From NCBI RefSeq assembly GCF_018398935.1, contig NZ_CP074694.1:2970001-3002000 (forward strand): a DNA stretch of 32,000 nt, in the 5' to 3' direction. Origin of the DNA: Telmatocola sphagniphila. Its GTDB lineage: Bacteria; Planctomycetota; Planctomycetia; Gemmatales; Gemmataceae. Made by a program: the position numbers and the translations under genes. Shown one piece after another: positions 2,089 to 32,000 of this stretch (position 1 is its first letter; every line of letters starts with the position of its first letter). The notes beneath the pieces were generated by a model. It did not search any database. It was not told where the DNA came from and saw only the letters and a program-made list of their open reading frames with translations.

Positions 2089-2182
2089 GTCCTTCGACGC
2101 CGTTTCTTCAGGAGACTAAAACGACTTTGTAACCGATCGGGAAAATTCCCGCAACGGCAAGATTTTGGCGTCCTTAACTCTT

Positions 2183-3334: not shown

Positions 3335-3540
3335 TGAAATAGGTCTCCAGACAGAAAGAGTTTGTATTTCTGCCGTTGGGAATGTCTTCATTCTTACTAA
3401 CTTTCTTTCCTTCCAAACAAATTCCATACCCAAAATTCTGCTAATTCCAGGAAAAGCGAGACGCCCCTTGCCCTGCTTCATAGAATCTAATTACTTGATT
3501 GAAGTTGGACGCGAATCCTTCCGAATATCAATACATAGAT

Positions 3541-11695: not shown

Positions 11696-11807
11696 ATATT
11701 ATTCTAGTCACGAGAATATCCGACAACGAGGGGAATTCGCAAGTGGCGATGATTTCCGAATAACATAGTCTATTCAATGGGTTTTTTGCAAATTTGAGGG
11801 TTCAGCG

Positions 11808-17972: not shown

Positions 17973-18377
17973 TTATCCCTGGAAAATATAGAGGAAAAGG
18001 GCTCGCAATATCAAAAACCAGACGAAGAAAATGAACGCGCAGCCAGCTCGATAAAGAATTTTGGATTTGTCGGAAGCGTTAGGAGTCCATTGGTCGCGAA
18101 TGAATGAACGCCGGATTTTTTTTGCCCGAAAGAAACTCGAAGCTGCGGTAGATGTCTGCGTGGTGGAGGATACTTCCGTGAGTTGGGAGGAATTCATCAC
18201 CATCTCGCTTTGGGTATCCTGGGTATTGGACGCAGGAGCCAAATGACTGCGAACCACGCCATCCACATCGGAAACGCGAAATTTGACTCGACATTTGGGA
18301 CACGTCAGGATCTTGCCCTTCGGCGAGTGCTCCGAACGGTAAGGAAAGTAGCAGCGGGGGCAAGAAAAGTAAAACAT
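17973..18377 (-). CDS. Zinc-ribbon (MJ0042-type CxxC...CxxC) protein with C-terminal TM anchor
   Basis: N-terminus MFYFSCPRCYFPYRSEHSPKGKILTCPKCRVKFRV, a Ser/Thr-rich middle, and a C-terminal hydrophobic helix AGCAFIFFVWFLILRALFLYIF. Confidence 0.6.
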   Translation of the reverse strand: MFYFSCPRCYFPYRSEHSPKGKILTCPKCRVKFRVSDVDGVVRSHLAPASNTQDTQSEMVMNSSQLTEVSSTTQTSTAASSFFRAKKIRRSFIRDQWTPNASDKSKILYRAGCAFIFFVWFLILRALFLYIFQG

Positions 18378-18495
18378 TTAATCGAGACCCATATCGCGAT
18401 CAAAATTGGGGATAGCGACGATCTATAAATTTCGAAGAATTACTGGAATCCAGAAGAATCTTTACATGGCAAAAATGGATTAACGGCCTAATGCA

Positions 18496-18558
18496 ATCGC
18501 GGCCAGCGCCGCGATCAACTCGCAACCAGGGTCGAGTGCTACTGGAGAGCACCCGACC
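18496..18558 (-). terminator. Two tandem stem-loops just downstream of the DUF2383 gene stop
   Basis: Hairpin 18530-18558: GGTCGAGTGCT / AGCACCCGACC, 11 bp with one mismatch. Hairpin 18496-18515: ATCGCGGC-CAGC-GCCGCGAT, perfect 8 bp. Neither has a clear T-tract. Confidence 0.35.
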
Positions 18559-18568
18559 TTAAAGGACA

Positions 18569-19054
18569 TTATACCCGAGGGATCAAATGATCTAGTTCGA
18601 GAACATGCTTCCGACAGGCCGGCAAGAACTTCGATTGCAGCAGCGTTTTACAAGACTGACTGATTTCCGAATTTTCAATGGCATCCTCGTAGTCGCCGAT
18701 ACCAAGTTCTTCGCCTCGCTTCAAGGCCGCCAGAACCGTTTTTGGTCCGATGACCTTAGCCGTTTCGGTAACCGCGGAAGTAAAACTGCCCCAAGCCCCT
18801 GCACTGTCCTCAGGCTTCCCACCGAACTGCTGGATGCGCTGCTGCAACGAAGTCACCGCCTGACTGTGCTCGGCGCGAATGCGGCTCAATTCCTTCTGAA
18901 TGGCGAGGTCTTCAAACTTACTGATCGCCTGCTCATAAGCGGCCACTGCGGACAATTCCCCGCGCAGCAGCTTATTCATGCGATCCGTGTCACACTTCTG
19001 CTGATCGGTATCAATTGAAGAATCCAGGCCGGATGTCGTGATGTTCGTGGTCAT
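18569..19054 (-). CDS. DUF2383 / PA2169-like ferritin-like four-helix-bundle protein
   Basis: 161 aa, all-helical. LLRGELSAVAAYEQAISKF and GIGDYEDAIEN resemble the paired motifs of this family. The start ATG overlaps the upstream ORF's stop (ATGA at 19051-19054). Confidence 0.7.
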   Translation of the reverse strand: MTTNITTSGLDSSIDTDQQKCDTDRMNKLLRGELSAVAAYEQAISKFEDLAIQKELSRIRAEHSQAVTSLQQRIQQFGGKPEDSAGAWGSFTSAVTETAKVIGPKTVLAALKRGEELGIGDYEDAIENSEISQSCKTLLQSKFLPACRKHVLELDHLIPRV

Positions 19055-19236
19055 CTCGTTGCTTCCTCGAAAAAAATATCGTCTCGCAATTCAAGACGTA
19101 TTCCTATCAAGAGTGCAACGTCGATGCCAAAGAAGTATGCAATACCTGCATTCGAACTAGTTAAGGATTTTGACTTAAGAGTCAAACGGGAGAGGAGTTC
19201 AGAACCAAATTTAATAAGTGCTAACCGGACTTCCAT
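19051..19236 (-). CDS. Small ORF (61 aa), possibly a divergent HTH protein, translationally coupled to the DUF2383 gene
   Basis: ATG start and ATGA stop/start overlap with the downstream gene. FGSELLSRL...SLTSSNAGIAYFFGIDVALLIGIRLE loosely resembles an XRE-type HTH. No obvious Shine-Dalgarno. Confidence 0.4.
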   Translation of the reverse strand: MEVRLALIKFGSELLSRLTLKSKSLTSSNAGIAYFFGIDVALLIGIRLELRDDIFFEEATR

Positions 19237-19644
19237 AGCGATGTACTACGCGATTAGTTCGCATGCTGCCGACGAGAATGGTCCGCTTAGGTAGCAAATC
19301 CTGCAGCTTTCTTTGTACGAACTCTGCCGGGGAGAATTTTTCGCGTTCGTCCACAACAGACTCTTCTTGAGATTTGGGTGATAGAAATGGCGAAGCCTTC
19401 GTGGACATGCGTGTCGGTGACATCTTTTAATCCCCAAATACTGGGCGGACGATTAGCTTACGGCAGATCATGTGCCAAAGCAAAATTAATATCCGAATTA
19501 AATAAATATATATTTTCGACGGAGAAAACTGCGATGCGACAGCCATTTAAGATTTCTGAAGTCCGATTATTAAATGGCTAGCGCAACCCAATTCTCAACA
19601 ACGGGAAGACATCGCGCTGCTAAAAGGGCTGAATAAATGGCCGA

Positions 19645-20202
19645 TTAATGGCCGTTGCTTCCCAATTGAAGGGACTTCTGCACTAAAGTGGAGGTTAATC
19701 CCGGTTCCGCATTCTCTAACAAAGAGTAAAGCGAGGACAGCGAGCGTCGGGCGCTGCAAAGTCGAATCAACCGAATCGCCAGACGCACTTCTCCGAACAA
19801 AATCAGCTCACTGGCTCGTTCCCGCAACTTTTCACACGTCTCATTTTCCCAGCTTTTTTGTGCGACCTGATAAGCCTCTTCCACGGCATGATCTTCATCG
19901 ATTTCGTTCTGGATTTGCCCTTGGAGATTAAGAATCGTATCGCCTAACTGGAAGGCGTGCAGAATTGCTTGTTGCCCTCGTTCCGAAAGTTCAACCGCAT
20001 GCACGGGGTGGGCAGCAAATCTTTCTGCAAATACCGCAAAAGCATAGATTTCCTGACAGGCTCGGAGAAATTCCGCATTTAAACGCCCGAGAATCTCTAA
20101 TTTCGTCGGCGGAGCAGAATTGAGCGCCTCCACCCGAGACGATCGGGAAGCGGCGTTATTCCGAATTCTCTTCATGCGAGACATCGTAGCAGTACGGGAC
20201 AT
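19645..20202 (-). CDS. Hypothetical all-helical protein, last gene of the two-component operon
   Basis: The ORF is open to 20280. The ATG at 20202 (MSRTATMSRMKR...) has AGGAAG 7 nt upstream. No recognisable family motif. Confidence 0.55.
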   Translation of the reverse strand: MSRTATMSRMKRIRNNAASRSSRVEALNSAPPTKLEILGRLNAEFLRACQEIYAFAVFAERFAAHPVHAVELSERGQQAILHAFQLGDTILNLQGQIQNEIDEDHAVEEAYQVAQKSWENETCEKLRERASELILFGEVRLAIRLIRLCSARRSLSSLYSLLENAEPGLTSTLVQKSLQLGSNGH

Positions 20203-20359
20203 GGTGCATCTTCCTAAATGTGTGCTTCCATCAATTAAAACTTGGGGAAAGCCTAAAGCAGGACTTGTGCCGATCGGCATTAATAATTGATGAATTCAAT
20301 GCGAAATAGTCTGAAATGATAATTTGTATCGAAGTAATTAATTAAAAAAACGGCCCAGA

Positions 20360-21550
20360 TTAGCATTCAATTAATGGAAGCTTGACGAGTATTTCCGTTC
20401 CTTTTTCAATTCCTTCACTGCGTGCCTGAACGCTGCCGCCGTGCATCTCCACCAGCTTTTTCACCAGAGAAAGGCCTATGCCTAAACCACCTTGCGACCG
20501 ATTTAAACTGCGATCCACCTGCGTAAACAGCTCGAAGATCTGGGACACCATCTCTGGCGGAATTCCGACTCCCGTATCCTGCACGCAGATCGCTGCAAAC
20601 GAATCGCTTTGAGTGACCTTCAGACAGACTCGACCGCCGCGCTTGGTGTATTTTGCGGCATTGTTCAGCAAATTGGAAAAAACCTGCGCAAGCCGCAGCC
20701 TATCTCCCCGAACCTTGAGTTCCCGTTCGGGCATCTCCAGATCCAAAGTGATTCCCGCTTTGTCCAGGAGGGGTTGGCTGGTCTCCAGCGACAGGTCAAT
20801 TATCTCGCGAACTAGCAATAGGTCCAGATCCAGCGTCAACTTACTGCGGGTGATGCGGGAAATATCCAACAGGTCATCTATGAGGCGGATTAAGGTGTGC
20901 GTCTGCCTCTCCATGATTAAACGGGCTTTTTCAATCGTGGCAGGATTATCTGCCGCTATTCTCATGATTTCCAGAGCATTGCGAATCGGAGCGAGAGGAT
21001 TTCGCAGTTCGTGAGCGAGGGTGGCCAGGAATTCGTCCTTGCGCTTATCGGCCAGACGAAGCGCTTCATTTGCACGTGCTAGCTCTTCGGTGCGCTCGGC
21101 CACTTTCTTTTCAAGCTGGGTTTCGTATTGTCGCTGCTGCAAAGCGTAGCGGATCGTCCTATCCAGCACGGCAGCTTCCAACCGGCTCTTTTCCAGAAAA
21201 TCGGTCGCGCCGGCATCCATGGCCGCCAAGTCGATTTCCGTACTACTTTGACCTGTCAGAAGAATGATTGGCGATTTGCAACCCAAAGCGCGCGCCTCCT
21301 TGAGCAGTTCCAGGCCGCTTTTTTCTCCTAGCCGGTAGTCCAGCAGGTAGATGTCGTGCTCGCCCCGACGGATCGCCTCAAATCCCTCTTCGAACTTCCA
21401 GATCCATTGAAGATTGAAACTCGCGTGAGAGATGTCGCTCAAGACCTGCTTGGTGAGGTAGTAATCGTCCTCATCATCGTCGATCAGCAGAATCTCGATG
21501 GGACGATCAGTTACGGGAGTTGGACCGTTCATAGTGAGGCAACTCCACAA
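20360..21550 (-). CDS. Cytoplasmic hybrid protein: N-terminal receiver domain, then HisKA and HATPase_c histidine kinase domains
   Basis: REC: ILLIDDDEDDYYL..DIYLLDYRLGEKSGLELL..PIILLTG. H-box LAHELRNPLAPI. N/G boxes NLLNNAAKYT, DTGVGI, GGLGIGLSLV. No TM segments. An alternative start at 21532 (MNGPTP) is possible. Confidence 0.9.
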   Translation of the reverse strand: MWSCLTMNGPTPVTDRPIEILLIDDDEDDYYLTKQVLSDISHASFNLQWIWKFEEGFEAIRRGEHDIYLLDYRLGEKSGLELLKEARALGCKSPIILLTGQSSTEIDLAAMDAGATDFLEKSRLEAAVLDRTIRYALQQRQYETQLEKKVAERTEELARANEALRLADKRKDEFLATLAHELRNPLAPIRNALEIMRIAADNPATIEKARLIMERQTHTLIRLIDDLLDISRITRSKLTLDLDLLLVREIIDLSLETSQPLLDKAGITLDLEMPERELKVRGDRLRLAQVFSNLLNNAAKYTKRGGRVCLKVTQSDSFAAICVQDTGVGIPPEMVSQIFELFTQVDRSLNRSQGGLGIGLSLVKKLVEMHGGSVQARSEGIEKGTEILVKLPLIEC

Positions 21551-21989
21551 TCTCTAGCCAATACTTGCCCAGAACTTTGATGACTTCCACGAGCCCTTCG
21601 AAGGTCACGGGCTTCGTTATGTAAGAAGAGGCCGACAAATTGTAGGATTTTATGATGTCTTCCTCGGCCTTGGAGGTCGTCATGATCACCACGCGAAGCG
21701 TTTTCAGATGGGGATCTGCTTTTATTTCCTGCAGAGCTTCGCGGCCATCCTTGCGAGGCATATTCAGATCGAGAAGCAACAATCCCGGCATGGGGGAGGA
21801 CGCCGGGTCGCTGTATTTGCCTCTTCTATGCAAATAATCCATCAGTTCTTCACCATCATTGACAAAACGCAGATCGTTGGCAAGCCGGCTCTCTGCAAAT
21901 GCCTCCTGAGTCAATCGTCGATCATCAGGATCATCATCAGCCATAAGAATTGTCACGATTCGTTCCTTGAGCGAAGAGTTGAAAACCAA
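21507..21989 (-). CDS. Single-domain response regulator (Rcp1/CheY-like receiver)
   Basis: ILMADDDPDDRRL..LLLLDLNMPRKDGREAL..VVIMTTS..YITKP. TTG start at 21989 is preceded by AAGGAG 6 nt upstream (the SD overlaps the stop of the upstream kinase). Confidence 0.9.
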   Translation of the reverse strand: MVFNSSLKERIVTILMADDDPDDRRLTQEAFAESRLANDLRFVNDGEELMDYLHRRGKYSDPASSPMPGLLLLDLNMPRKDGREALQEIKADPHLKTLRVVIMTTSKAEEDIIKSYNLSASSYITKPVTFEGLVEVIKVLGKYWLEIVELPHYERSNSRN

Positions 21990-21999
21990 TGGACGCTCC

Positions 22000-24675
22000 T
22001 TAAATCTGAACCGAAGGGATAGTCACTTCGAAGGTCGCTCCTTGCCCCGGCTGGCTTTTCGCGGAGATCGATCCACGATGCCTTTCAACTATTTTTCGAC
22101 AGATCGCCAGCCCCACACCGGTCCCTTCATATTCATCTCGTCCATGCAGCCTTTGAAATACTTCAAAGATTCGGTCCAAATACTTTTCGTCAAAGCCTAT
22201 GCCGTTATCACTTATATCAACCCTATAGCAGGCGGGTTTAACCGAATCATTATTATCAGCACTATTTGTGCCAATCAACTGAGATGCAATGTTAACTTCA
22301 GGAGGAACACCGACTTTATGAAACTTCAAAGCATTTCCGATCAGATTTTGAAAGAGTTGTCGCATTTGTAAGGCATCTGCTTGAATTTTTGGCAACTTGC
22401 CCACGATGACTTGGCCGCCGGTCTGTAGCAAGCGGCCTTCCAAATCGGAGAGAACTTCCTGGACTAGGAGGTTCAAATCGACCATCTCGAAATTTCCCGG
22501 TTTCGTGGTAACTCGGGAGAAGGCCAGCAGGTCATCAATCAGTCGACGCATACGGGCCGAGGAATCCAGCATCCGCTCGATATAGTTTTGCCCTTCCTCA
22601 CCCAGTGTTGACTGGTATTTCTGAGTGAGTCGATTCCCAAACGCCTGAATTTTCCGAAGGGGTTCCTGGAGATCGTGGGAAGCCACATACGCAAACTTTT
22701 CCAATTCCTCGTTACTTCGCCGCAGTTCGCGTGCCTGATTCTTTTCCCGCTCCTCGGCTCGGCTTCTTTCCTCAACCTCCTCCTGAAGGGATCTATTCAA
22801 TTTCAAGAGTTCCGAAGTTCTCAACTCAACCAGACGCTCTAAGACTTCAGATTGCAGTTTCTGTTCGTGAATGTCCGTCATAGTTCCCACCCACTGAGAA
22901 ATCTCACCAGTGGTTTCTCGAAGTGCCACCGCATTCGTGAGCATCCAGCGGTAATTGGGATCACTCTTGCCGCGCAGGCGAAACTCATTGACGTAATGGT
23001 CCGAGTTGGCCTGACGGGCTTTCTCCCAAGCATCATGCATGCCTTGAAGATCCTCCGGATGCACCAACTCTCTCCAGCCGAGATTTCGCGCCAGTTCCAC
23101 GGTCACACCGGTGTGATCGATCCAGCGGCGGTTATAATAAGTGACCTGACCGCTCGCGTCAGTTGCCCAAACCATCTGAGGAATCGCCTCGGTCAGCAGG
23201 CGGAACCGTTCCAGACTTTCGCGCAATTCCACTTCAATTTTGCGATGCTCGGTAACATCCCGAGAGACGCAGACATAACGAAATGGCGTTCCGTCGGGCC
23301 CGGGAATCGGAGCAATTTGAACGTCCCAGTACTTCGGTGTTCCTTTCATCGTCGGCCGAGAACCACTGAAGCGACCAATGGACCCGCTGGTGGCGAGATC
23401 GAACGCTTTCTTCACGTCTTGCTGCTGCTCGGGAGTCCACATACTTTCCCACTGCCGACCTTTGATCTGCTCGAAGTCATCGATCTGCATGAGCTTGCGA
23501 CCCGGCGAATTCATCTCTTGAATTCGGCCTTCCCGATCGAGAATTTTGATGCAATCCGGACTGTTCTCCAGAACGCTTCGGAAAAAGGCTTCACTATCCC
23601 GAATCTGTTGTTCGGTATGTAATTGTTCCGTGATATCCAAAGCAATGACGCCCAGCCCAATTTTCTTCTGCAGATTATCGCGAACGGGAAAAATGCTCAA
23701 ACGCCAGACACGCTTCTTTCCGGATACTTCCTGTTCGATGTGCAAAATCCGATCGGGAATTCGTTCGCCGGTGGCCAGGGAGTGCTTGAAATCCTGCAGA
23801 ATTTCTTCGGGAAAATCCGATCGGAGTTCTCGCGGCGTCTTTCCCCAGTGCGCGGCCAGAGGCAGGCGGTTCATTTCTGCAATTTGGTGATTCGCTCTCA
23901 CGTACCGAAGGTTAGGATCGAAGAAGGAAATTCCCACCGGAGCGTTCTGGAGAAATGCATCGAGTTGTGCAAGAGTCTCCGCCATATCCTGACGGGAACT
24001 ATCGAGATGCTGATTCGTCTCGCGTAATTTTCGCTCCACAGTCTTGCGATGTTTCAACTCGCTATGAACTAATCGATAAGCCCCGCCGACGAGAAACAGA
24101 ATCAGAAAACCGCCGACGATATTGGTAATGGCGGCTACCAGATAGCTGTTTTCAGCCGTATTAATTCGCTGCTGGTACAAATCCTCCTCGACTCGATCCA
24201 TCGCGGAAATTTGTTTCTGCACATCGTTCATCAGGCTAAAACCGCTACCCGATTTTATAACTTTTTCTGCCTCGACCTCCCCAGAGGCCTTTCGAACGGC
24301 TATGGTCTTGCGCAGCAGATTTAATTTGTCCTGAATAAGCTCCCCAAGTTGGTTAGCGCGCTCTACCTGCTCCGGGTTGTCTTGGGTTAAATTCTTAAGT
24401 ACAGTTAACTCCAGCTCGAGCATCTTCGCGGCGCGCTCAAAAGATTCTAAATATCTATCCTGTTCGGTAATTTGATAACCTCGCTGGCTCGATTCCGCAT
24501 CTTTTACGAGCGATAGAACATCGACAAGTTCCTTCTGGACATCGCGAGTGTGGGCCACGAGTTGATCGTGTTCGCGAAGGGTCTGCATATTGGAACGAGA
24601 CGCCAGAAAGTTCAGAATCACCGCCACGAAGGCCAACAACCATACTACAAGCATTTTCTTGGACGAATTACCCAT
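22000..24675 (-). CDS. Membrane sensor histidine kinase: CHASE3 periplasmic domain, about three PAS domains, HisKA, HATPase_c
   Basis: TM1 MLVVWLLAFVAVILNFL. CHASE3-like region (HTRDVQKELVDVLSLVKDAESSQRGYQITEQDRYLESF). TM2 LVAAITNIVGGFLILFLVGGAY. PAS cores (GISFFDPNLRYVRAN, DCIKILDREGRIQEMN, MVWATDASGQVTYYNRRW). H-box SHDLQEPLRKI. ATP-lid DNGIGF, GTGVGLAIC. Confidence 0.9.
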   Translation of the reverse strand: MGNSSKKMLVVWLLAFVAVILNFLASRSNMQTLREHDQLVAHTRDVQKELVDVLSLVKDAESSQRGYQITEQDRYLESFERAAKMLELELTVLKNLTQDNPEQVERANQLGELIQDKLNLLRKTIAVRKASGEVEAEKVIKSGSGFSLMNDVQKQISAMDRVEEDLYQQRINTAENSYLVAAITNIVGGFLILFLVGGAYRLVHSELKHRKTVERKLRETNQHLDSSRQDMAETLAQLDAFLQNAPVGISFFDPNLRYVRANHQIAEMNRLPLAAHWGKTPRELRSDFPEEILQDFKHSLATGERIPDRILHIEQEVSGKKRVWRLSIFPVRDNLQKKIGLGVIALDITEQLHTEQQIRDSEAFFRSVLENSPDCIKILDREGRIQEMNSPGRKLMQIDDFEQIKGRQWESMWTPEQQQDVKKAFDLATSGSIGRFSGSRPTMKGTPKYWDVQIAPIPGPDGTPFRYVCVSRDVTEHRKIEVELRESLERFRLLTEAIPQMVWATDASGQVTYYNRRWIDHTGVTVELARNLGWRELVHPEDLQGMHDAWEKARQANSDHYVNEFRLRGKSDPNYRWMLTNAVALRETTGEISQWVGTMTDIHEQKLQSEVLERLVELRTSELLKLNRSLQEEVEERSRAEEREKNQARELRRSNEELEKFAYVASHDLQEPLRKIQAFGNRLTQKYQSTLGEEGQNYIERMLDSSARMRRLIDDLLAFSRVTTKPGNFEMVDLNLLVQEVLSDLEGRLLQTGGQVIVGKLPKIQADALQMRQLFQNLIGNALKFHKVGVPPEVNIASQLIGTNSADNNDSVKPACYRVDISDNGIGFDEKYLDRIFEVFQRLHGRDEYEGTGVGLAICRKIVERHRGSISAKSQPGQGATFEVTIPSVQI

Positions 24676-24802
24676 CCAGTAAACCCTTCGATGGAGAAAA
24701 TATTGCTGTATTCCATTTTCCTGGCGAAGTTAATGACAGTCCTTGGTAAAATAATCTATCTCTCGATTCAAACCTAGTTAATTCGAGCAACACTTTTTAA
24801 CA

Positions 24803-26251
24803 ATGACGACCGAAGTTCCTGAACCGATAACCGGCCCAAAAGAGCCTGCGATCTCTCAGCGCGTACTAGTTGTGGAAGATCTCGAGGATACAAGAGTATC
24901 GCAACAGCAATTATTATGCCTATCGCTGGGTCTGGAAGTCGATACCGCCGAGGATGGCCAGGCAGCACTGAGTATGCTGTTGGAGCGCAATTACAGTCTG
25001 GTGATAACCGATCTTCGCATGCCGAAACTCAACGGCATGAAATTGATCGAAGAAATCAATCAGCGCAAATTGCCTGTTACTGTCATTGTGACGACCGGAC
25101 ATGGGGGGGTGAATGATGCCGTAAACGCCATGCGAATGGGCGCTTACGATTTTCTCGTAAAACCCCCGAACCCGCAGCATCTTTGCATGCTGGTGCAAAG
25201 GGCACTTCGGGAAAGATCCCTACAAGATGAAGTTGCATCACTTCGTCAGGAACTCGGGCAAAGGCATTCGTTTCAGAATGTCATTTCGAAAAGTCCGCGG
25301 ATGCACGATGTTTTCGAATTGATCGGCCAAATTGCCACGACCTCCTCTACCGTTCTAGTGATTGGCGAAACCGGTAGCGGGAAAGAGCAGATCGCCCGAG
25401 CGATTCATCAAGCCTCGGCCGAGCAGAGACCAGGGGCCTTTGTGGCAATTAATTGCGCGGCACTGCCCGAAACTCTTCTGGAAAGCGAACTATTCGGACA
25501 CGAAAAAGGAGCCTTCACAGGGGCTACCACTCAGCGCAAAGGCCGTTTTGAACAGGCTCATAAGGGTACTATATTCCTGGATGAAATCGGCGATGTTCCT
25601 CTGGCGATGCAAGTAAAACTCCTGCGGGTGCTCCAAGAGAGAAAATTCGAGCGCATCGGTGGAACTGAAACCGTCGAAATTGATGTTCGAGTTGTCGCAG
25701 CGACGCACCAAGCGTTGGAAAAGCTTGTAAAAGACGGCAAGTTCCGCGAAGATTTATTTTATCGTCTGAACGTTATTCGCATCGACGTACCCCCATTGCG
25801 GGACCGGCCCGAAGATATTCCAGTTCTAGCGAGCTTCTTTGCGCAGAAATTTACTCGCACCGGCCAGACACCTCCCAAGCTCAGCCCCGAAGCCTTACAG
25901 GTACTACAAGGTTATTCCTGGCCCGGTAATGTGCGTCAGCTGGAAAATGCCTTGGAAAGAGCCTGTATCACGGCCCGAGATGGCCTCATTTTGCCCAAAC
26001 ATTTGCCTTCGGATATCAGCGGATTGATATCCTCTTCGAAACAGGCAATGCAAGTCGATCTGTCACGAAGTTTACCGGAGCAGTTGTCCGAATTGGTTGC
26101 CAGTTTTGAGAAACGCTACCTGCGCAAAGCATTGAGGCGAACACGCGGCCATGTTGGCAAGACGGCCAAGATCAGTGGATTATCGCGAAGAAGTGTTACT
26201 GAAAAAATCGGACACTATGCGATCGACAAAGCAGAATTTAAAAAGGACTGA
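24803..26251 (+). CDS. Sigma-54-dependent response regulator (NtrC-family enhancer-binding protein)
   Basis: REC (VLVVEDLEDT..LVITDLRMPKLNG..VIVTTGHG). AAA+ sigma-54 interaction domain (GETGSGKE Walker A, GAFTGA loop as EKGAFTGA, IFLDEIGD Walker B, RVVAATH). C-terminal Fis-type HTH (GHVGKTAKISGLSRRSVTEKI). Confidence 0.93.
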   Translation: MTTEVPEPITGPKEPAISQRVLVVEDLEDTRVSQQQLLCLSLGLEVDTAEDGQAALSMLLERNYSLVITDLRMPKLNGMKLIEEINQRKLPVTVIVTTGHGGVNDAVNAMRMGAYDFLVKPPNPQHLCMLVQRALRERSLQDEVASLRQELGQRHSFQNVISKSPRMHDVFELIGQIATTSSTVLVIGETGSGKEQIARAIHQASAEQRPGAFVAINCAALPETLLESELFGHEKGAFTGATTQRKGRFEQAHKGTIFLDEIGDVPLAMQVKLLRVLQERKFERIGGTETVEIDVRVVAATHQALEKLVKDGKFREDLFYRLNVIRIDVPPLRDRPEDIPVLASFFAQKFTRTGQTPPKLSPEALQVLQGYSWPGNVRQLENALERACITARDGLILPKHLPSDISGLISSSKQAMQVDLSRSLPEQLSELVASFEKRYLRKALRRTRGHVGKTAKISGLSRRSVTEKIGHYAIDKAEFKKD

Positions 26252-26262
26252 AGGATATTGAA

Positions 26263-26289
26263 GATGCGGGACTTTTTCAGTCTCGCATC
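26263..26289. terminator. Stem-loop between two convergent stops (candidate bidirectional terminator)
   Basis: GATGCGGGACT-TTTTC-AGTCTCGCATC: 11-bp stem with one G-U wobble. It lies in the centre of the 57-nt gap between the stops at 26251 and 26309. Confidence 0.5.
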
Positions 26290-26308
26290 CAGAATTGTCT
26301 GAAATCCA

Positions 26309-26632
26309 CTAGCGCCGCCAACCACGGCCACCGCTGCGGAATCCACCCCGGTAGCCGGAGCGATAAAAATTATTATACCCCCAACGGTAACTGGGCCTAT
26401 AACCCCAGTTATAATATCCACCGTTTCCTATTCCGATGGAAAAATTGGGGCCACTATAGTAGAGTCCGGGATAACTACTATAAGAATAGTAGTTATAGGG
26501 CTGATAATAGGGCGTAGAGTAGGAATATCCGTAGGTTCCAGGATCATACGTAGTAACAATCTGGGCTTTGGCCTGAGAGCCGGTCAATAGCAGCACAGCG
26601 ATTCCGGCGACTAAAACATTTTGAATCCTCAT
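26309..26632 (-). CDS. Small secreted Tyr/Gly/Ser/Asn-rich low-complexity protein with Arg/Gly-rich C-terminus
   Basis: ATG at 26632 preceded by AAGGAG 7 nt upstream (track start is an upstream TTG, 26650). Signal peptide MRIQNVLVAGIAVLLLTGSQAKA. The 84-aa mature part has 20 Tyr, 16 Gly and 8 Arg (all in the last 29 aa), and no Lys, Glu or Cys. A sigma-54 promoter match lies upstream and a hairpin downstream. Confidence 0.75.
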   Translation of the reverse strand: MRIQNVLVAGIAVLLLTGSQAKAQIVTTYDPGTYGYSYSTPYYQPYNYYSYSSYPGLYYSGPNFSIGIGNGGYYNWGYRPSYRWGYNNFYRSGYRGGFRSGGRGWRR

Positions 26633-26678
26633 GGTGATTCTCCTTATCAAAAGCCATTTGATACAGAAAGATTAAACC

Positions 26679-26693
26679 GCAATCCGAATGCCA
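26679..26693 (-). promoter_or_regulatory. Sigma-54 (-24/-12) promoter match facing the Tyr/Gly-rich gene
   Basis: Minus strand reads TGGCAT-TCGGA-TTGC, with exact consensus spacing (TGGCAC-N5-TTGC). The -12 element lies about 47 nt upstream of the ATG at 26632. Confidence 0.7.
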
Positions 26694-26787
26694 ACGATCA
26701 TACTGGTTAAATTTTTCTGGTTCTTCCGAGACACTTTTGACATGCCTGGTGCGCGAAGGTGAGAATTCGAGTTCTCTTTGTTCGTGC

Positions 26788-26810
26788 AATCACTGACTAA
26801 ATGAGTGATT
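26788..26810. promoter_or_regulatory. Perfect inverted repeat between the two sigma-54 promoters (candidate activator/UAS site)
   Basis: AATCACT-N9-AGTGATT (7-bp arms). It lies about 95 bp upstream of the minus-strand -24 element and about 20 bp upstream of the plus-strand -24 element. Confidence 0.45.
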
Positions 26811-26830
26811 TTCAACAATTCACCTTTTGA

Positions 26831-26845
26831 CGGCACATAAGTTGC
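26831..26845 (+). promoter_or_regulatory. Sigma-54 (-24/-12) promoter match facing the cyclic glucan synthase gene
   Basis: CGGCAC-ATAAG-TTGC with exact GG-N10-GC spacing. The -12 element is about 44 nt upstream of the ATG at 26889, which has GAGG 7 nt upstream. Confidence 0.65.
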
Positions 26846-26888
26846 CTGTTTGCGATGATTCTAGCTCGAAATTTATTGAGGTTTATTT

Positions 26889-29800
26889 ATGGTGGAATCG
26901 GTTCAGGTCCCTATTGCCGAGAAACCATCCAATCTAGTTGACTATCTCTCCGATTACACCCACCCCTTGCGTTTGGATGCCGCGGGCCATGAGAGTTTGT
27001 TGCAGAAAATCCGCGAATTGGCTGTCGGTTCGATTGATTCGATTGCACCGAGTTCTCGTTCCGTACTGATACGCTTTCGAGGCAACTGCGCCCGACTTAA
27101 AGAGGTGCACCGGGAGCTGGCCCTTAGAGCGGCCTTAGGGGAACAGATTCCTAGTGAATCCGAATGGTTGCTCGACAACTATTACATCATTCAGGAAGTC
27201 GTTCGAGAAATTCGCAATGATCTTCCCAAGGGTTACTATCGAGAGTTGCCCGCCCTACTCAGTGGACCTTTTGCAAGACTCCCTCGGATCTGTCCGTTTG
27301 CCTTTTCGCTGCTGGCTTATACCGATTCGGCTTTTACGGAGTCCGACATTACGGAAGCCGTGACGGAATACCAACGTGTCGCTCCGCTATCCATCGGTGA
27401 AATCTGGGCGATCCCGACGATGTTGAGGCTCGCTCTACTGGAGAATTTGAGGCGAATTGCCGATCAGATTGTTTCGACTATCAAGGAGCACCGCTCCGCG
27501 ACCGCAGCGGTATTACTCGCGAACAAGGGGAGCCAGCCGCTTCTGCCTACCCAGCCCACGGACGCTTTTGCTGTGGCCTTCTGGGAAGGATTGCGCGACG
27601 GCGATAACACGAGTGCAGTCCGAAGCGACTTAGTTCACGATTGGTTATCGGAACACATAGCCGATCCCGGAAAGATTGAACATCGCGAATACTGCCGACA
27701 GGCGGCAAATCAAGTTTCCATCGGGAACGCCATCACTAGTCTTCGCTTGCTCGGCGTCATTGACTGGATGAACTTTTTCGAATCGGTCAGCTTAGTTGAG
27801 GCCGAGCTTCGCAGAGACCCGGCGGGAATCTACGGCCGACAGGATTTTGGAACGAGAGATCGTTGTCGCCAAGCAGTGGAGAAACTTTCCCGACAATCCA
27901 AAATTTCCGAATTGGACATTGTTAAGCGGGCCAATCACCAGGCCGAACTTTCGAAATCGACCTCTCCCCTTCCCAACGCCAGCTTTTTAATCGGAGAGCA
28001 TCGTCAGGTTTTTGCGCAAAGCCTCAAGCCGATTCCCTTCTGGAAAATGAGCAGGCAGGATTGGCTCCTGGAACATCCCAATTTATTCTTTTTTGGGCTA
28101 CTCGGTTCGCTGACTGCACTTCTGGTAATTAGTGCGATTGCCCTCTCCGGAGCAAGTTCTATAAGTCTCATCGTTCTGGTGGCATTGGCTGCCTTACTTC
28201 CCGCGAGCGAACTGGCTGTCGGCTTTTCCAATTTTTTCATTACTCGTCAGCTTGCCCCTCGAGTGCTACCCAAGCTCGATTTCAAAAATGGAATTGCGAA
28301 CGGATGCGACACCTTCGTGGTGATCCCGACTCTGCTGACCAGACCGGAACAAGCCGCCGTGCTTTGCGAACGGTTGGAGTTACACTATTTATCCAACTCC
28401 GATCCCAAGCTTCGGTTTGCATTGCTTACAGACTTCCCGGATGCAGATGCAGAGCAAACGCCGAGCGACGATCCAAGTCTCCAGACGGCCTTGGAAGGCA
28501 TTCAGAAATTGAATGAACTGCACGCGGAGGAAAACTCTCCTCGCTTTTTTCTCTTTCACCGTCGAAGGCTTTGGAATCCCTCGCAAAACTGCTGGATGGG
28601 GTGGGAACGCAAACGCGGTAAACTCGAAGAATTCAACAGTTTGCTTCGCGGTGATAAGAACACCACCTACTCGATTCAATCTTCTGTCATCGATAAACTG
28701 CCGCCGATTCGCTATGTCCTTACACTCGATGGCGACACCGTTCTGCCTCGAGACGCCGCGCGGCAGATGATCGCTACATTGGCCCATCCACTTAATCAGC
28801 CGATATTATCGGAAGATAAACGCCGGGTGATTTCCGGTTTTGGACTATTACAACCCCGAGTGAGTTTCCTTTATAAAACCGGATTTCAGTCGTGGTTTGC
28901 AAGCCTTTTCGCAGGCTCTGCCGGGATCGATCCTTATTCCGCCGCGGTGTCCGATACGTACATGGATCTTTTTGCCAAGGGAACTTTCACAGGCAAAGGG
29001 CTGTACGATATCGATGCTTTTCAAGCGACCTCGGGACAAGCTTTCCCCGAAAATGCCATCTTAAGTCACGATCTGATCGAGTCAAATTATACGCGCTGTG
29101 CCCTGGCCACCGATGTCGAAGTCTTCGATGAGTTCCCTTCGCGTTATAACTCGTACGCTCGGCGCGAACATCGATGGATCCGAGGCGACTGGCAATTGCT
29201 GCCCTGGTTGAGTCGCCGAGTGCCAACTTCTTCCGGCGAAGCGATCAATATTCTGCCGGCTTTGGAACGCTGGAAGATCATCGATAATTTGCGCCGGAGT
29301 CTCGTACCGGCCAGTCTCGTTCTGCTCTTGCTTCTGGCCGCGACCATTCTGCCCGGACAATTTCTTGGCTGGTGTGGCTTTGTTATGATCCTATTCGCGT
29401 GGCCAACGATCTTTTATCTGCTCGAAACTGCGTTGTTAAAATTGCATGGCAAATCTTCGAGGAGTTTGATTGCCCGCTTACGGGCCGATCTTCCTTCAAC
29501 TCTCGGACAATCGGCCCTGCAATTCGCGTTTCTACCCAATCAAGCCTGGGTGGCCATTCATGCAATTGGTACGACGCTTTACCGTCTGAATTTTTCGCGA
29601 AAGAAATTACTGGAATGGGAGACCGCCGCAGCGGCAGAAGTCCGTTTGGGAACTCAATTCAAGGCCTTCCTCCACTCCATGTTTCCCGCCGTGATAATAT
29701 CTCTGGTCTGTTTGCTTCTTGTGGGAATATCCCACTTGAGCAATTTGATTTATTTTGCTCCGATCGGCCTGCTCTGGCTAATGTCACCCCTGATCGCCTG

Positions 29801-32000
29801 GCGAATCAGCCAACCGCGACAATTTTTGGAAAGAAGCTTAACCGAAGAAGAACGATTGGAACTCCGGCTGGTTTGTCGAAAGACCTGGAATTTCTTCGAA
29901 ACTTTTGTCGGGGATGCCGATAATCACTTGCCTCCGGACAACTACCAGGAAGATCCTTTGTCGGCAGTGGCCCACCGCACTTCCCCTACGAATATCGGTT
30001 TATATCTCCTTTCCGTTCTGGCTGCGCACGATCTGGGATACCTCACCCTGCCTCAGATGCTGGAGCGATTACGCAAAACATTTGCATCGATTCAAAAATT
30101 GGAAAAGTATCGCGGCCATCTGTTGAATTGGTACGAAACCACAACGCTAGAGACTTTACAGCCTGGCTACGTCTCCACGGTCGACAGCGGGAATTTATTA
30201 GCCTGTCTGCTGACGTTGAAGCAGGGCCTTTTAGAAAAAATGCGAACCCCGCCGCAGTCAACTCCCGAGGGACTACGAGATACCTGCGAACTGTTTCTGA
30301 AAGCCCTTTCAGAGCCAGCGCATAACGATCCCAAATTGAAACAGCAGGCTGAGGAGTTGCGAAAAGCACTTTTAACGAAATTTAAACTCACCGAGATTCA
30401 ATCTTCACTCGTTTCACTGCAATCGAAATCTCTTTCTAGTCATCCTGAGGCGGAAGTTTGGCTTTCTCGACTCTCCCAACAAGTGCAACAACAGTTGCTT
30501 TTAGATCAACAGCCTACCGAGCAAAGTGTCGGGTGCCCCAAGGAAATGGCTGAGATCGCTGAAGAGGCCGAGCGATTAGCAAAGGGCATGGATTTTCGAT
30601 TTCTTTATAATGCCGAGCGGGATCTCTTCAGCATTGGCTATAACTGCAACACGCAAAGATTAGACACTTCACATTACGATTTGCTCGCTTCAGAATCCTG
30701 CATCGCCAGTTTTCTGGCGGTCGCTCGCGGTCAAGTCCCCAGAAAGCACTGGTTTCAATTAGGTAGGCTTTCAATGTATGCCGCGGGAGAGACCGGCTTG
30801 ATCTCCTGGGGTGGTACGATGTTCGAGTATCTGATGCCCCGGATCCTTCTACCGGTACCGCAGGGAGTATTGCTCGATCGGGCACAACGCACGGCCGTCG
30901 CCCGACAGATCGAGTTTGGTGCGGAAGAGAAACTACCCTGGGGTGTTTCCGAATCCGGATTTTATCTGCTTGATGCCGGTAAAATCTATCAGTACCAATC
31001 GTTCGGGGTTCCTGGTTTGGGTTTAAAAAGGGGCCTGGAAAAAGATCGGGTCGTGGCTCCCTATGCGACTCTGATGGCTGTGGACATCGATCCCCAGAAA
31101 GCGATCGCCAACCTGAAGGAGCTGAAAAAGTGGGGCGGCGAGGGCAAATTCGGTTACTACGAAGCATTGGATTTTTCTCCCCAGCGCATCCCGGAGGGGA
31201 GTAAATGTCGTGTCGTGAAATCCTATATGGCTCATCATCAGGGTATGGGATTGCTGGCCATTCTGAATCGGTTGACCCAGGGAGCGCTCCGTCGCCGATT
31301 CCAGGCGGAACCGGTCGTCCGCTCCGCGGAATTACTACTGCAGGAGCGGATTCCCAACGATTTTCCGATCTTCGAGCCGGAGGTTGCCACCGTCGAGGAC
31401 CAGCAACTTTCGACCTTCAACGCTCCTTCGCGACGGCGAATCACCACTCCGGATACTCCCGTTCCACGCACGCATCTTTTATCCAACGGCCTTTACACCG
31501 TAATGATCACCAACTCCGGCGCGGGTTTCAGCCGCTATGGCGATATAGATATCACTTTCTTCCGCGCCGATCGGACGACCGACGACTGCGGACAGGTTAT
31601 CTATTTGCGTGACCGCCGTTCCGGAAAAATCTGGTCCGTGGGCTATCAGCCGATCCGCAAAAAAACGTCCCATTATGAAGTCATCTTTTCGCTCGATAAG
31701 GCTGATATCCGCCAGTTTGATGACGGCATTGAGACGCATCTGGAAATCACCGTTCCCCCCGATCAGAACGTCGAGATTCGGCGACTATCGATAGCCAATC
31801 AATCGGCCCGGCAAGTCCGGTTGGATGCTACCAGCTATGCCGAGATTGTGCTCAATGATCATCGCGCTGACATGGCTCACCCGGTCTTTGGAAAGCTATT
31901 TCTGGAAACGGAATGGGTCCCGCAATACTGTGCCCTTCTATGCCAACGCCGGCCCCGTACTCCCAACCAGAAGACGGGCTGGGCCATGCACTTGCTGGTA
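26889..32000 (+). CDS. Cyclic beta-1,2-glucan synthase (Cgs/NdvB/ChvB-like; GT84 domain plus start of the GH94-type region), 5' 1704 codons; continues beyond the window
   Basis: Not in the supplied ORF track because it has no stop in the window. I translated it by hand: MVESVQVPIAEKP... stays open to nt 32000. TM segments (LFFFGLLGSLTALLVISAIAL, LIVLVALAALLPASELAV). GT domain with DXD (YVLTLDGDTVLPRDA), GKGLYDIDAF, and the signature REHRWIRGDWQLLPW. Later motifs: HRTSPTNIGLYLLS, STVDSGNL, WGGTMFEYLMP, YMAHHQGM. Confidence 0.88.
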   Translation, partial: MVESVQVPIAEKPSNLVDYLSDYTHPLRLDAAGHESLLQKIRELAVGSIDSIAPSSRSVLIRFRGNCARLKEVHRELALRAALGEQIPSESEWLLDNYYIIQEVVREIRNDLPKGYYRELPALLSGPFARLPRICPFAFSLLAYTDSAFTESDITEAVTEYQRVAPLSIGEIWAIPTMLRLALLENLRRIADQIVSTIKEHRSATAAVLLANKGSQPLLPTQPTDAFAVAFWEGLRDGDNTSAVRSDLVHDWLSEHIADPGKIEHREYCRQAANQVSIGNAITSLRLLGVIDWMNFFESVSLVEAELRRDPAGIYGRQDFGTRDRCRQAVEKLSRQSKISELDIVKRANHQAELSKSTSPLPNASFLIGEHRQVFAQSLKPIPFWKMSRQDWLLEHPNLFFFGLLGSLTALLVISAIALSGASSISLIVLVALAALLPASELAVGFSNFFITRQLAPRVLPKLDFKNGIANGCDTFVVIPTLLTRPEQAAVLCERLELHYLSNSDPKLRFALLTDFPDADAEQTPSDDPSLQTALEGIQKLNELHAEENSPRFFLFHRRRLWNPSQNCWMGWERKRGKLEEFNSLLRGDKNTTYSIQSSVIDKLPPIRYVLTLDGDTVLPRDAARQMIATLAHPLNQPILSEDKRRVISGFGLLQPRVSFLYKTGFQSWFASLFAGSAGIDPYSAAVSDTYMDLFAKGTFTGKGLYDIDAFQATSGQAFPENAILSHDLIESNYTRCALATDVEVFDEFPSRYNSYARREHRWIRGDWQLLPWLSRRVPTSSGEAINILPALERWKIIDNLRRSLVPASLVLLLLLAATILPGQFLGWCGFVMILFAWPTIFYLLETALLKLHGKSSRSLIARLRADLPSTLGQSALQFAFLPNQAWVAIHAIGTTLYRLNFSRKKLLEWETAAAAEVRLGTQFKAFLHSMFPAVIISLVCLLLVGISHLSNLIYFAPIGLLWLMSPLIAWRISQPRQFLERSLTEEERLELRLVCRKTWNFFETFVGDADNHLPPDNYQEDPLSAVAHRTSPTNIGLYLLSVLAAHDLGYLTLPQMLERLRKTFASIQKLEKYRGHLLNWYETTTLETLQPGYVSTVDSGNLLACLLTLKQGLLEKMRTPPQSTPEGLRDTCELFLKALSEPAHNDPKLKQQAEELRKALLTKFKLTEIQSSLVSLQSKSLSSHPEAEVWLSRLSQQVQQQLLLDQQPTEQSVGCPKEMAEIAEEAERLAKGMDFRFLYNAERDLFSIGYNCNTQRLDTSHYDLLASESCIASFLAVARGQVPRKHWFQLGRLSMYAAGETGLISWGGTMFEYLMPRILLPVPQGVLLDRAQRTAVARQIEFGAEEKLPWGVSESGFYLLDAGKIYQYQSFGVPGLGLKRGLEKDRVVAPYATLMAVDIDPQKAIANLKELKKWGGEGKFGYYEALDFSPQRIPEGSKCRVVKSYMAHHQGMGLLAILNRLTQGALRRRFQAEPVVRSAELLLQERIPNDFPIFEPEVATVEDQQLSTFNAPSRRRITTPDTPVPRTHLLSNGLYTVMITNSGAGFSRYGDIDITFFRADRTTDDCGQVIYLRDRRSGKIWSVGYQPIRKKTSHYEVIFSLDKADIRQFDDGIETHLEITVPPDQNVEIRRLSIANQSARQVRLDATSYAEIVLNDHRADMAHPVFGKLFLETEWVPQYCALLCQRRPRTPNQKTGWAMHLLV

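Follow-up and report, generated by a model that had tools for sequence, protein, structure and literature searches.

A histidine kinase cassette, a sigma-54 activator and a putative sigma-54-dependent stress and envelope island at the cyclic glucan synthase locus of Telmatocola sphagniphila

INTRODUCTION

We analyzed a 32,000-nucleotide (nt) stretch of DNA from the planctomycete Telmatocola sphagniphila (the window; gene, domain and promoter coordinates below are in its numbering), in which genes for two histidine kinases, a stand-alone receiver and a sigma-54 activator lie beside the gene of a cyclic beta-1,2-glucan synthase homolog (cgs). Among described regulators, the NtrB/NtrC-type systems are close in kind. 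The window activator resembles them in its predicted architecture, a receiver (REC), an AAA+ domain with a GAFTGA motif and a Fis-type helix-turn-helix (HTH) domain, as well as in its presumed control by a phospho-Asp and in the −24/−12 promoters nearby. It differs in that it has no co-directional cognate kinase but stands divergent from a three-gene operon for two kinases and a receiver, and in that its predicted targets are stress and envelope genes rather than genes of nitrogen or acetoacetate metabolism.

Several His-Asp components feed one sigma-54 activator in Caulobacter (ShkA-ShpA-TacA) and in Chlamydia (CtcB-CtcC-sigma-54), the latter belonging to the same Planctomycetes-Verrucomicrobia-Chlamydiae (PVC) superphylum, and these activators drive developmental or stress programs. 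The window cassette differs from both in having no histidine phosphotransfer (HPt) domain and in the N-terminal position of the receiver of its second kinase; unlike Chlamydia CtcC, its activator keeps the DNA-binding domain. The glucan synthase in turn resembles Cgs, ChvB and NdvB of Brucella, Agrobacterium and Sinorhizobium in length (about 2,800 amino acids [aa]), in its Glycoamylase-like cyclase region and in its GH94 domains, with a glycosyltransferase match (PF13632) that is weak and below threshold. As ChvB is paired with the exporter ChvA (NdvA, Cgt), so cgs in Gemmata has an ATP-binding cassette (ABC) exporter gene downstream. What sets the planctomycete gene apart is a conserved sigma-54 promoter and a planctomycete-specific companion that we call p70, our own label for a family of small proteins whose window member has 70 aa.

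A further comparison is with the RpoS regulon of enterobacteria, RpoS being, to our knowledge, confined to Proteobacteria. That regulon holds the families Dps, DUF883 (ElaB/YqjD/YgaM), YqjE, DUF1328 (YtjA) and CsbD (YjbJ), and the planctomycete locus has Dps, DUF883, Holin-X and DUF1328 by Pfam and a CsbD-like family by our reading of the sequences, a label given without a recorded Pfam match. The difference lies in the promoters, which here are of the −24/−12 type and require an ATP-dependent activator, so that the switch would be gated by a phosphorylation signal rather than by sigma-factor abundance. ElaB is RpoS regulated (PMC6389858), and the DUF883 proteins YqjD, ElaB and YgaM are tail-anchored and ribosome inactivating (bioRxiv 10.1101/2024.08.16.608256). 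The periplasmic cyclic-glucan gene ndvB of P. aeruginosa is RpoS dependent as well (PMC9228545), although that NdvB makes beta-1,3 glucans by an unrelated enzyme. As a passage of one report states, rpoN of the planctomycete P. limnophilus complements Salmonella (PMC3906078), from which we expect planctomycete sigma-54 to recognize canonical promoters.

A preliminary description of this DNA, made from its letters and open reading frames (ORFs), had proposed a CHASE3-driven phosphorelay acting through the activator on one output pair, the glucan and a secreted Tyr-rich peptide. Here we set out the promoters, the signaling genes and their conservation in related genomes, and we argue that the output is probably broader.

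RESULTS

Sigma-54 promoters and a putative island

The consensus that we scanned for was TGGCAC-N5-TTGC, with GG-N10-GC as its core. Allowing at most one mismatch, the window contained 11 sigma-54 matches, compared with 3.8 ± 1.8 in shuffled sequences, none of which (0/100) reached 11. We then considered locus L081, a 28.5-kb piece of the 81.5-kb source contig (Logan SRR14506984_107) that reaches 10 kb beyond the end of cgs. On L081, 11 of 16 relaxed −24/−12 matches preceded a same-strand start codon by 35 to 81 nt (binomial test, P value = 7 × 10−11). Five such start-proximal elements fall inside the window and eleven on the contig, spread over 26 kb. We therefore read the locus as a probable sigma-54-dependent stress and envelope island of about 26 kb, of which the window would cover the regulatory core and the left half. 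The elements inside the window, and the genes in front of which three of them stand, are as follows.

18569-19054, minus strand: DUF2383 gene (ferritin-like four-helix protein, 161 aa; Pfam PF09537, E value = 6.5 × 10−18)
19114-19129, minus strand: sigma-54 element TGGCATCGACGTTGCA, with the match TGGCATCGACGTTGC at 19129, exact consensus, 60 nt before the DUF2383 start
19211-19423, minus strand: p70, 70 aa, uncharacterized cgs-associated family (jackhmmer)
19462-19477, minus strand: sigma-54-like element TGGCACATGATCTGCC, with the match TGGCACATGATCTGC at 19477, 39 nt before p70
20257-20272, minus strand: weaker sigma-54-like element CGGCACAAGTCCTGCT, 55 nt before the gene of a 185-aa protein
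26678-26693, minus strand: sigma-54 element TGGCATTCGGATTGCG, with the match TGGCATTCGGATTGC at 26693-26679, exact consensus, 46 nt before the ATG of the Tyr-rich peptide
26831-26846, plus strand: sigma-54 element CGGCACATAAGTTGCC, with the match CGGCACATAAGTTGC at 26831-26845 (one mismatch), 43 nt ahead of the ATG of cgs
26889 to beyond 32000, plus strand: cyclic beta-1,2-glucan synthase gene (cgs), first 1,704 of 2,823 codons, running off the window

The two sigma-54 matches that the preliminary description had placed before the secreted low-complexity peptide and the glucan synthase were thus recovered, one exact and one with a single mismatch. The true cgs ATG is at 26889, rather than at 26880. 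The full-length product (P0002, 2,823 aa) has PF10091, PF06165 and PF17167, and residues 65 to 1699 of the window fragment align with the Agrobacterium-type enzyme of PDB 8rf0/8rf9 at 1,103 bits; the closest relative is from Fimbriiglobus ruber (57% identity). By these matches the gene encodes a cyclic beta-1,2-glucan synthase homolog whose predicted product is cyclic beta-1,2-glucan.

We next looked into whether the cgs promoter is conserved across 83 cgs loci, of which 80 came from a metagenome scan with alignment of the Cgs N termini and the others had been found earlier. The roughly 250 nt before each ORF were compared with 249 control regions of equal length. A −24/−12 match preceded cgs in 40/83 loci and was present in 16/249 controls (Fisher test, P value = 3.5 × 10−16); it was found in 19 of the 26 closest cgs loci, and the number of sigma-54-fronted cgs genes rose to 52/83 when p70-cgs operons were counted. 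In F. ruber, CGGCACATTCATTGCT is placed 38 nt before the cgs ATG, with CGGCACGACAGTTGCA in the equivalent place in L084; Gemmata obscuriglobus (CP042911) has CGGCACCCGATTTGCT, also 38 nt before the cgs ATG and the sole match in 24.5 kb, and Gemmata massiliana has TGGCATTAAGTTTGCT at the equivalent place. The retention of the promoter ahead of cgs in 40 to 52 of the 83 loci supports sigma-54 control of the gene, and its sigma-54 dependence appears to be a well-supported, conserved trait of a Gemmata-related clade.

These results also bear on whether the −24/−12 matches could be chance or nonfunctional, the genes being transcribed instead from sigma-70 or extracytoplasmic function (ECF)-type promoters. 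The first position of the window cgs element is a nonconsensus C, and a sigma-70-like match, TTGACA-18-GAGAAT, lies at 26737-26766 (plus strand). However, the CGGCA(C/T) variant at −24 recurs before cgs in F. ruber, G. obscuriglobus and many metagenome loci, elements at the equivalent position, often of this variant, are found in L084 and L166 as well, and a scan of 24500-27000 for sigma-70 promoters and terminators yielded four sigma-70 matches, a number not above shuffled expectation. Together with the placement of the elements before start codons and their conservation upstream of cgs, this makes a chance origin highly improbable.

Gene content of the island and of orthologous loci

The DUF2383 gene is the leftmost member of the putative island in the window. 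Beyond cgs on L081 are genes for a Dps/ferritin protein, a 75-aa protein, an alpha/beta hydrolase, a 144-aa lipoprotein and a DUF1328 protein, followed further along by a Holin-X (PF07332) and DUF883 pair, an AI-2E transporter and a 145-aa CsbD-like protein. The minus strand carries an operon for a methyltransferase, a flavin adenine dinucleotide (FAD) monooxygenase and a type III polyketide synthase, which we take to resemble the alkylresorcinol/alkylquinone operons (srsABC, ars) by which Streptomyces and Azotobacter cysts strengthen their membranes.

L081 24822-27760, minus strand: polyketide operon, with a perfect sigma-54 match TGGCATAATGATTGCT at 27835 (window-equivalent ~41710-44723)

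Many of the same families recur beside orthologs of the window activator. Our activator scan, limited to one genome per species, retrieved 80 loci, 34 with an activator ortholog and 46 with a nonorthologous activator. The families adjoining the orthologs were AI-2E (19 of 34 loci), Holin-X (8), DUF883-like (8), DUF1328 (7), CsbD-like (7), DUF2383 (2, in L002 and L016) and lipoprotein (2), with DUF2171 and DUF3185-like genes as further neighbors, and all of these were absent from the 46 nonorthologous loci. Most of the island-type neighbors of the orthologs have −24/−12 elements of their own, conserved at the Holin-X, DUF1328, AI-2E and CsbD-like genes. Strong sigma-54 matches occurred at 1.23 per 10 kb in ortholog loci and at 0.40 per 10 kb in nonortholog loci, a soft comparison since the base composition of the two sets differs. 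Because these gene families parallel the RpoS stationary-phase core, the island is best read, by analogy, as a growth-arrest, osmotic or desiccation protection program that would be wired to sigma-54.

The four-gene signaling set

The regulatory core consists of the activator gene and, divergent from it, a tightly consecutive minus-strand operon in which the 3′ end of the receiver gene overlaps the start of the kinase 2 gene.

24803-26251, plus strand: NtrC-class sigma-54 activator, 482 aa; REC, Sigma54_activat, AAA_lid and HTH_8 (Pfam, motifs)
24676-24802: divergent control region, 127 bp, between the kinase 1 and activator genes
22000-24675, minus strand: kinase 1, 891 aa; transmembrane (TM) segment, CHASE3, TM segment, three PAS, HisKA and HATPase (Pfam and sequence)
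21507-21956, minus strand: single-domain receiver, 149 aa (Pfam, sequence)
20360-21532, minus strand: kinase 2, 390 aa; N-terminal receiver, then HisKA and HATPase (Pfam, sequence)
19645-20202, minus strand: 185-aa protein, encoded last in the kinase operon (start as called on the source contig)

This gene map agrees with the preliminary description in setting a CHASE3 kinase operon divergent from the activator across the 127-bp region. The sigma-70 and terminator scan found no sigma-70-type match within that region, and it contains no sigma-54 match either. The phospho-acceptor that had been read in the ITDLRMP stretch of the activator was confirmed as Asp70, inside a receiver match (PF00072, residues 21 to 131) that also has the Thr of VTTGHG and the Lys of LVKP. 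The central domain (PF00158, E value = 1.6 × 10−72) has a Walker A motif (GETGSGKE at 188), GAFTGA at 236 and a Walker B motif (IFLDEI at 257), and the HTH domain (PF02954) spans residues 433 to 471. The activator scored below the cutoff of every named NCBIfam equivalog (NtrC, AtoC, ZraR, GlrR, PEP-CTERM RR and others), the best being AtoC (488.6 versus a cutoff of 714) and then NtrC (439 versus 559); the nearest solved structures are Aquifex aeolicus NtrC1 and NtrC4 (PDB 1ny5, 4l4u).

The CHASE3 domain of kinase 1 (PF05227, residues 38 to 171, E value = 1.1 × 10−32) is bracketed by hydrophobic stretches at about residues 8 to 25 and 179 to 200. Pfam showed no HPt domain or HPt protein in the products of the kinase operon or their neighbors, so the term phosphorelay did not hold, and the arrangement is rather that of a cascade of two kinases plus a stand-alone receiver. 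Kinase 2 has its receiver at the N terminus, not at the C terminus as in a hybrid kinase, and thus the pair resembles a cascade in which one kinase activates the other and a receiver may act as a phosphate sink. The 185-aa protein had no Pfam or NCBIfam match and no homolog in any fetched locus. Its longest ORF (19645-20280, minus strand) would encode 211 aa, and the gene call on the source contig begins at 20202; with that start, the weak element at 20272-20257 falls 55 nt upstream of the gene.

Orthologs of the activator, at 57 to 73% identity, were found only in Planctomycetota records (Gemmataceae, Isosphaeraceae, Fimbriiglobus), except for one metagenome bin labeled Alcaligenaceae (L024), and the next tier, at 40 to 49% identity, belongs to other phyla. 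The kinase, receiver and receiver-kinase operon is divergent from the activator ortholog in 13 Gemmataceae/Isosphaeraceae loci.

Loci with the divergent operon: L001, L002, L006, L007, L009, L011, L013 to L016, L019, L031, L035

The receiver is the most conserved member of the set (71 to 80% identity in planctomycetes, 56 to 64% in Bdellovibrionales); orthologs of kinase 2 were present in 12 activator loci at 47 to 62% identity, and the transmitter core of kinase 1 is conserved too. In the Bdellovibrionales loci L060, L070, L071 and L074, the four genes are colinear and make up a single operon, in the order activator, PAS-kinase, receiver, receiver-kinase (at 10001-14098 in L071, Pseudobdellovibrio sp. 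HCB154). That the four genes are kept together in two arrangements and in two phyla is strong evidence for a functional unit, and we consider a single unit of kinases, receiver and activator to be supported by these comparisons.

The input side of this unit varies. Kinase 1 homologs have CHASE3 in the window, L016, L019, L035 and L135, and an ethylene-receptor-like ETR1_N domain with DUF4118 serves as the sensor in L007, L011, L015 and L031; the sensor is DUF4118 alone in L009, and none was recognized in L013. The CHASE3 input named in the preliminary description is therefore present in the window and replaced by other sensors in orthologs. As judged from these domain matches, sensor modules are swapped on a constant transmitter, and CHASE3 is one of several interchangeable inputs.

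ETR1_N replaces or joins CHASE3 with E values of 1 × 10−31 to 4 × 10−36, in kinases at these coordinates.

L007 7357-9864
L011 4101-9119
L015 7855-9891
L016 5858-9844
L031 6482-9754

A sigma-54 match was also seen 57 to 130 nt upstream of the activator gene in L001 (3622, plus strand) and L002 (4504, plus strand). This suggests autoregulation in those two loci; the window control region is without such a match.

The Tyr-rich peptide and p70

Divergent from cgs, and convergent on the activator gene, is the small gene that had been proposed as the second output.

26309-26632, minus strand: secreted Tyr/Gly-rich basic peptide, 107 aa (83 mature), signal peptide (AKA/Q)
26788-26810: perfect 7-bp inverted repeat AATCACT-N9-AGTGATT between the divergent peptide and cgs promoters, candidate activator site

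Tyr makes up 24% of the mature peptide, Gly 19% and Ser 12%; its net charge is +7, and an AAGGAG ribosome-binding site precedes the gene, which contains no tandem DNA repeat. Its consensus promoter, strong ribosome-binding site and signal peptide indicate that it is probably expressed. A word-indexed search of 5.8 × 10^9 proteins returned only the peptide itself, a HMMER scan of 1.84 × 10^9 representatives gave two weak compositional matches to long repeat proteins, and across 164 loci the surroundings of cgs and of the activator contained no ORF of 12% Tyr or more. In L112, the slot of the peptide is occupied by a 130-aa two-TM protein with a Tyr/Trp-rich membrane segment (2441-2833, minus strand; promoter at 2948), which is unrelated to the window peptide by homology.

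The small gene that does recur with cgs is p70. By jackhmmer, the family was found in 20 of about 83 cgs loci and in 1/80 activator loci, and a profile search gave 331 members, all annotated as hypothetical and none with a Pfam match, the named ones all being from Gemmata or Gemmataceae. The proteins are 65 to 72 aa long with a conserved core of approximately V-x-D-x-R-x3-(R/S)-P-(A/S)-(E/Q)-x-V-(E/Q)-x-K-L. The gene is usually immediately upstream of cgs and is divergent from it in F. ruber, and the order in Gemmata is cgs, p70 and an NdvA/ChvA-like ABC exporter; in G. obscuriglobus, L166 and L084 a gene for such an exporter follows cgs-p70, and none is encoded within 28 kb of the source contig. 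An own −24/−12 element was present in 16/20 p70 homologs. Further members were located as follows.

L082 5334-5588
L165 16612-16809
L166 16640-16846
L084 14646-14861

By its co-occurrence, p70, rather than the Tyr-rich peptide, is the recurrent small partner of cgs.

These data allowed us to weigh a narrow version of the output, in which a dedicated module from CHASE3 to the activator would drive only the glucan and the peptide to remodel the envelope. The two genes are divergent, with two good sigma-54 promoters 137 bp apart and a perfect inverted repeat between them, and both products are predicted to act outside the cytoplasm, the peptide by its signal peptide and Cgs through a periplasmic glucan. 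Against this stand the lack of any peptide homolog in either protein set and of any compositional analog near the 83 cgs genes, the recurrence of p70 as the companion, the unrelated protein in the L112 slot, the at least nine further sigma-54 promoters around the pair and a CHASE3 input that is not constant. The narrow glucan-peptide model is thus disfavored by the comparative data, and we judge it very unlikely. On the same comparative grounds, the peptide is a lineage-specific passenger of the regulon and not a conserved partner of the glucan synthase; it could fill the periplasm as a cross-linkable or glucan-binding material, or else act as a cationic peptide.

Linkage of cgs to the activator

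Among the cgs loci, an activator ortholog is directly upstream of cgs in L112 (57% identity) and divergent from it in L128 (62%), which with the window makes three adjacencies in 84 loci, compared with about 0.04 expected by a rough estimate that assumes a single-copy gene in an 8-Mb genome. The layout of L112 is that of the window, with an activator, a small gene that converges on it and has a sigma-54 promoter of its own, and a divergent cgs promoter; in L128 genes for CsbD-like, DUF3185-like and lipoprotein products, p70 and cgs are packed beside the activator. In addition, a kinase-receiver-kinase operon runs into p70-cgs in L088, and a CHASE3 kinase homolog precedes p70-cgs in L135. The gene-order evidence supports a linkage between cgs and the activator that is sporadic but recurrent.

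A shared activator-binding site was not found among the 11 island promoters, 60 promoters of orthologous loci and 32 cgs promoters. The only palindromic dyad that enrichment analysis brought out of the 60 promoters was GAAC-N-GTTC, present in 5; seed matches in 10 island regions were no better than in shuffles, and inspection of six Holin-X and the 32 cgs promoter regions revealed no shared site. The dyad TGACT-N3-6-AGTCA, found upstream of DUF2383 and in L112, had only 4 occurrences in 1.87 Mb. The inverted repeat between the peptide and cgs promoters is not present at other island promoters and has no common consensus with a second palindrome near DUF2383.

19176-19191: perfect short palindrome TTGACTCTTAAGTCAA, upstream of the DUF2383 promoter

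A similar palindrome, TGACTTGCTGAGTCA, lies beside the divergent promoters in L112. Because no shared site emerged, we infer the direct control of the island promoters by this activator, and that of cgs especially, from gene neighborhood only.

Several observations weigh against the reading of the locus as one activator-driven island. Besides the missing common site, cgs is absent from all 34 activator-ortholog loci retrieved by the activator scan, and in most cgs loci, those of F. ruber and G. obscuriglobus among them, the neighborhood lacks an activator. Sigma-54 activators are numerous in planctomycete genomes, so another one could serve cgs. No rpoN gene is present in the 28 kb read of the source contig; the peptide is recognized as a gene solely by its promoter, ribosome-binding site and signal peptide, with no comparative support; and the stress interpretation is drawn from the names of the families, of which many are DUFs, and from the analogy with RpoS regulons.

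Some of these points would fit a different arrangement, in which cgs and the peptide are sigma-54 dependent but driven by an unlinked activator, the cassette lying beside cgs by an accident of rearrangement and having the small stress genes, or other genes, as its sole targets. The conserved cgs promoter in genomes without an activator within 4 to 8 kb, the missing cgs in the 34 ortholog loci and the lack of a motif common to cgs and the other island promoters speak for this arrangement. It accounts poorly for an activator ortholog adjoining cgs in three independent and differently arranged loci, far above the expected number, for the kinase genes next to cgs in L088 and L135, and for the position of cgs in the source genome, between the activator and conserved island genes that each have their own −24/−12 element. 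We consider an unlinked activator unlikely, and the island with its local activator remains the reading that we develop below.

Other genes of the window

The left 17 kb of the window was considered as part of the island and rejected. Its genes, for a family-2 glycosyltransferase (GT2), a sulfotransferase, an SSF symporter, an aspartokinase and hydrolases, are housekeeping genes without relation to the island, and the sigma-54-like matches there are all single-mismatch ones. The region 18000-32000 contains no Rfam family. Three features to the left of the DUF2383 gene are recorded here in their own right.

1015-3490, minus strand: neighboring genes for a family-2 glycosyltransferase and a sulfotransferase, which may form a sulfated-glycan module and are unrelated to the island
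11769-13640, plus strand: aspartokinase-type amino-acid kinase of 624 aa with four ACT-domain matches, the usual number being two
17973-18377, minus strand: 134-aa protein with an N-terminal CPxC...CPxC zinc-ribbon-like motif, a C-terminal hydrophobic helix and a faint YnfU match, its gene lying between the hydrolase and DUF2383 genes

DISCUSSION

The picture that emerges retains part of the single signal-to-output module that had been suggested for this DNA. The kinases and the activator form a supported unit, cgs has a sigma-54 promoter and the two adjoin each other; the output, with at least 11 promoters over 26 kb, is broader than proposed, and its second supposed member, the peptide, is an orphan without co-conservation. 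Synteny, which the preliminary description had named as a check, was found for the four signaling genes (13 planctomycete loci and Bdellovibrionales), was sporadic for cgs and was not found for the peptide.

We infer the phosphotransfer route, the activator serving each promoter, the inducing signal and the physiology from the arrangement described above, and the following sequence of events would fit it. The membrane sensor kinase, with CHASE3 and three PAS domains as its input here, would autophosphorylate, and its phosphate would go to the neighboring single-domain receiver, the N-terminal receiver of the soluble kinase 2, or both. One of the two kinases would then phosphorylate Asp70 of the activator, which would form an AAA+ ring whose GAFTGA loops open sigma-54 closed complexes at a battery of local −24/−12 promoters. 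Within the window, the targets would be the cyclic beta-1,2-glucan synthase, and through it periplasmic glucan, the divergent Tyr/Gly-rich peptide, p70 and the DUF2383 protein. Past the window, they may include Dps, the CsbD-like and DUF1328 proteins, the Holin-X/DUF883 pair (YqjE/YqjD-like), the AI-2E transporter, the lipoprotein and the polyketide operon.

The regulatory logic of such a system is ordinary and its kinds of components are all known, while the wiring is undescribed in the literature that we searched. In that literature, we found no description of a conserved sigma-54 wiring of cyclic glucan synthesis, of an RpoS-like gene set under a dedicated activator or of the p70 family, nor any paper that deals with a sigma-54 stress regulon in planctomycetes.

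Little has been described of how planctomycetes regulate their stress responses, and our results name a set of regulators (two kinases, a receiver and an activator) together with a promoter class. Cyclic beta-1,2-glucan synthesis is known mainly from symbionts and pathogens of the Rhizobiales, and here its gene has a conserved sigma-54 promoter in free-living planctomycetes of soil and freshwater, where p70 is a new small-protein family that travels with the 2,800-aa synthase. The cgs promoter and gene order are present in the cultured species G. obscuriglobus, G. massiliana and F. ruber, so they can be tested there. If the analogy holds, an RpoS-like gene set wired to sigma-54 would be an example of convergent regulon evolution.

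More tentatively, and with less confidence than we place in the island itself, we propose that sigma-54, this activator orthogroup and the two-kinase input could be the master switch of a protection program in Gemmatales and Isosphaerales, which lack RpoS, with the cgs-p70-exporter genes as a core output and p70 as a partner or regulator of Cgs. If so, that program would cover stationary-phase, desiccation or osmotic protection, its input cassette would accept CHASE3, ETR1_N or DUF4118 sensors interchangeably, and the p70 proteins of 65 to 70 aa would be a previously unrecognized partner or regulator of a giant synthase.

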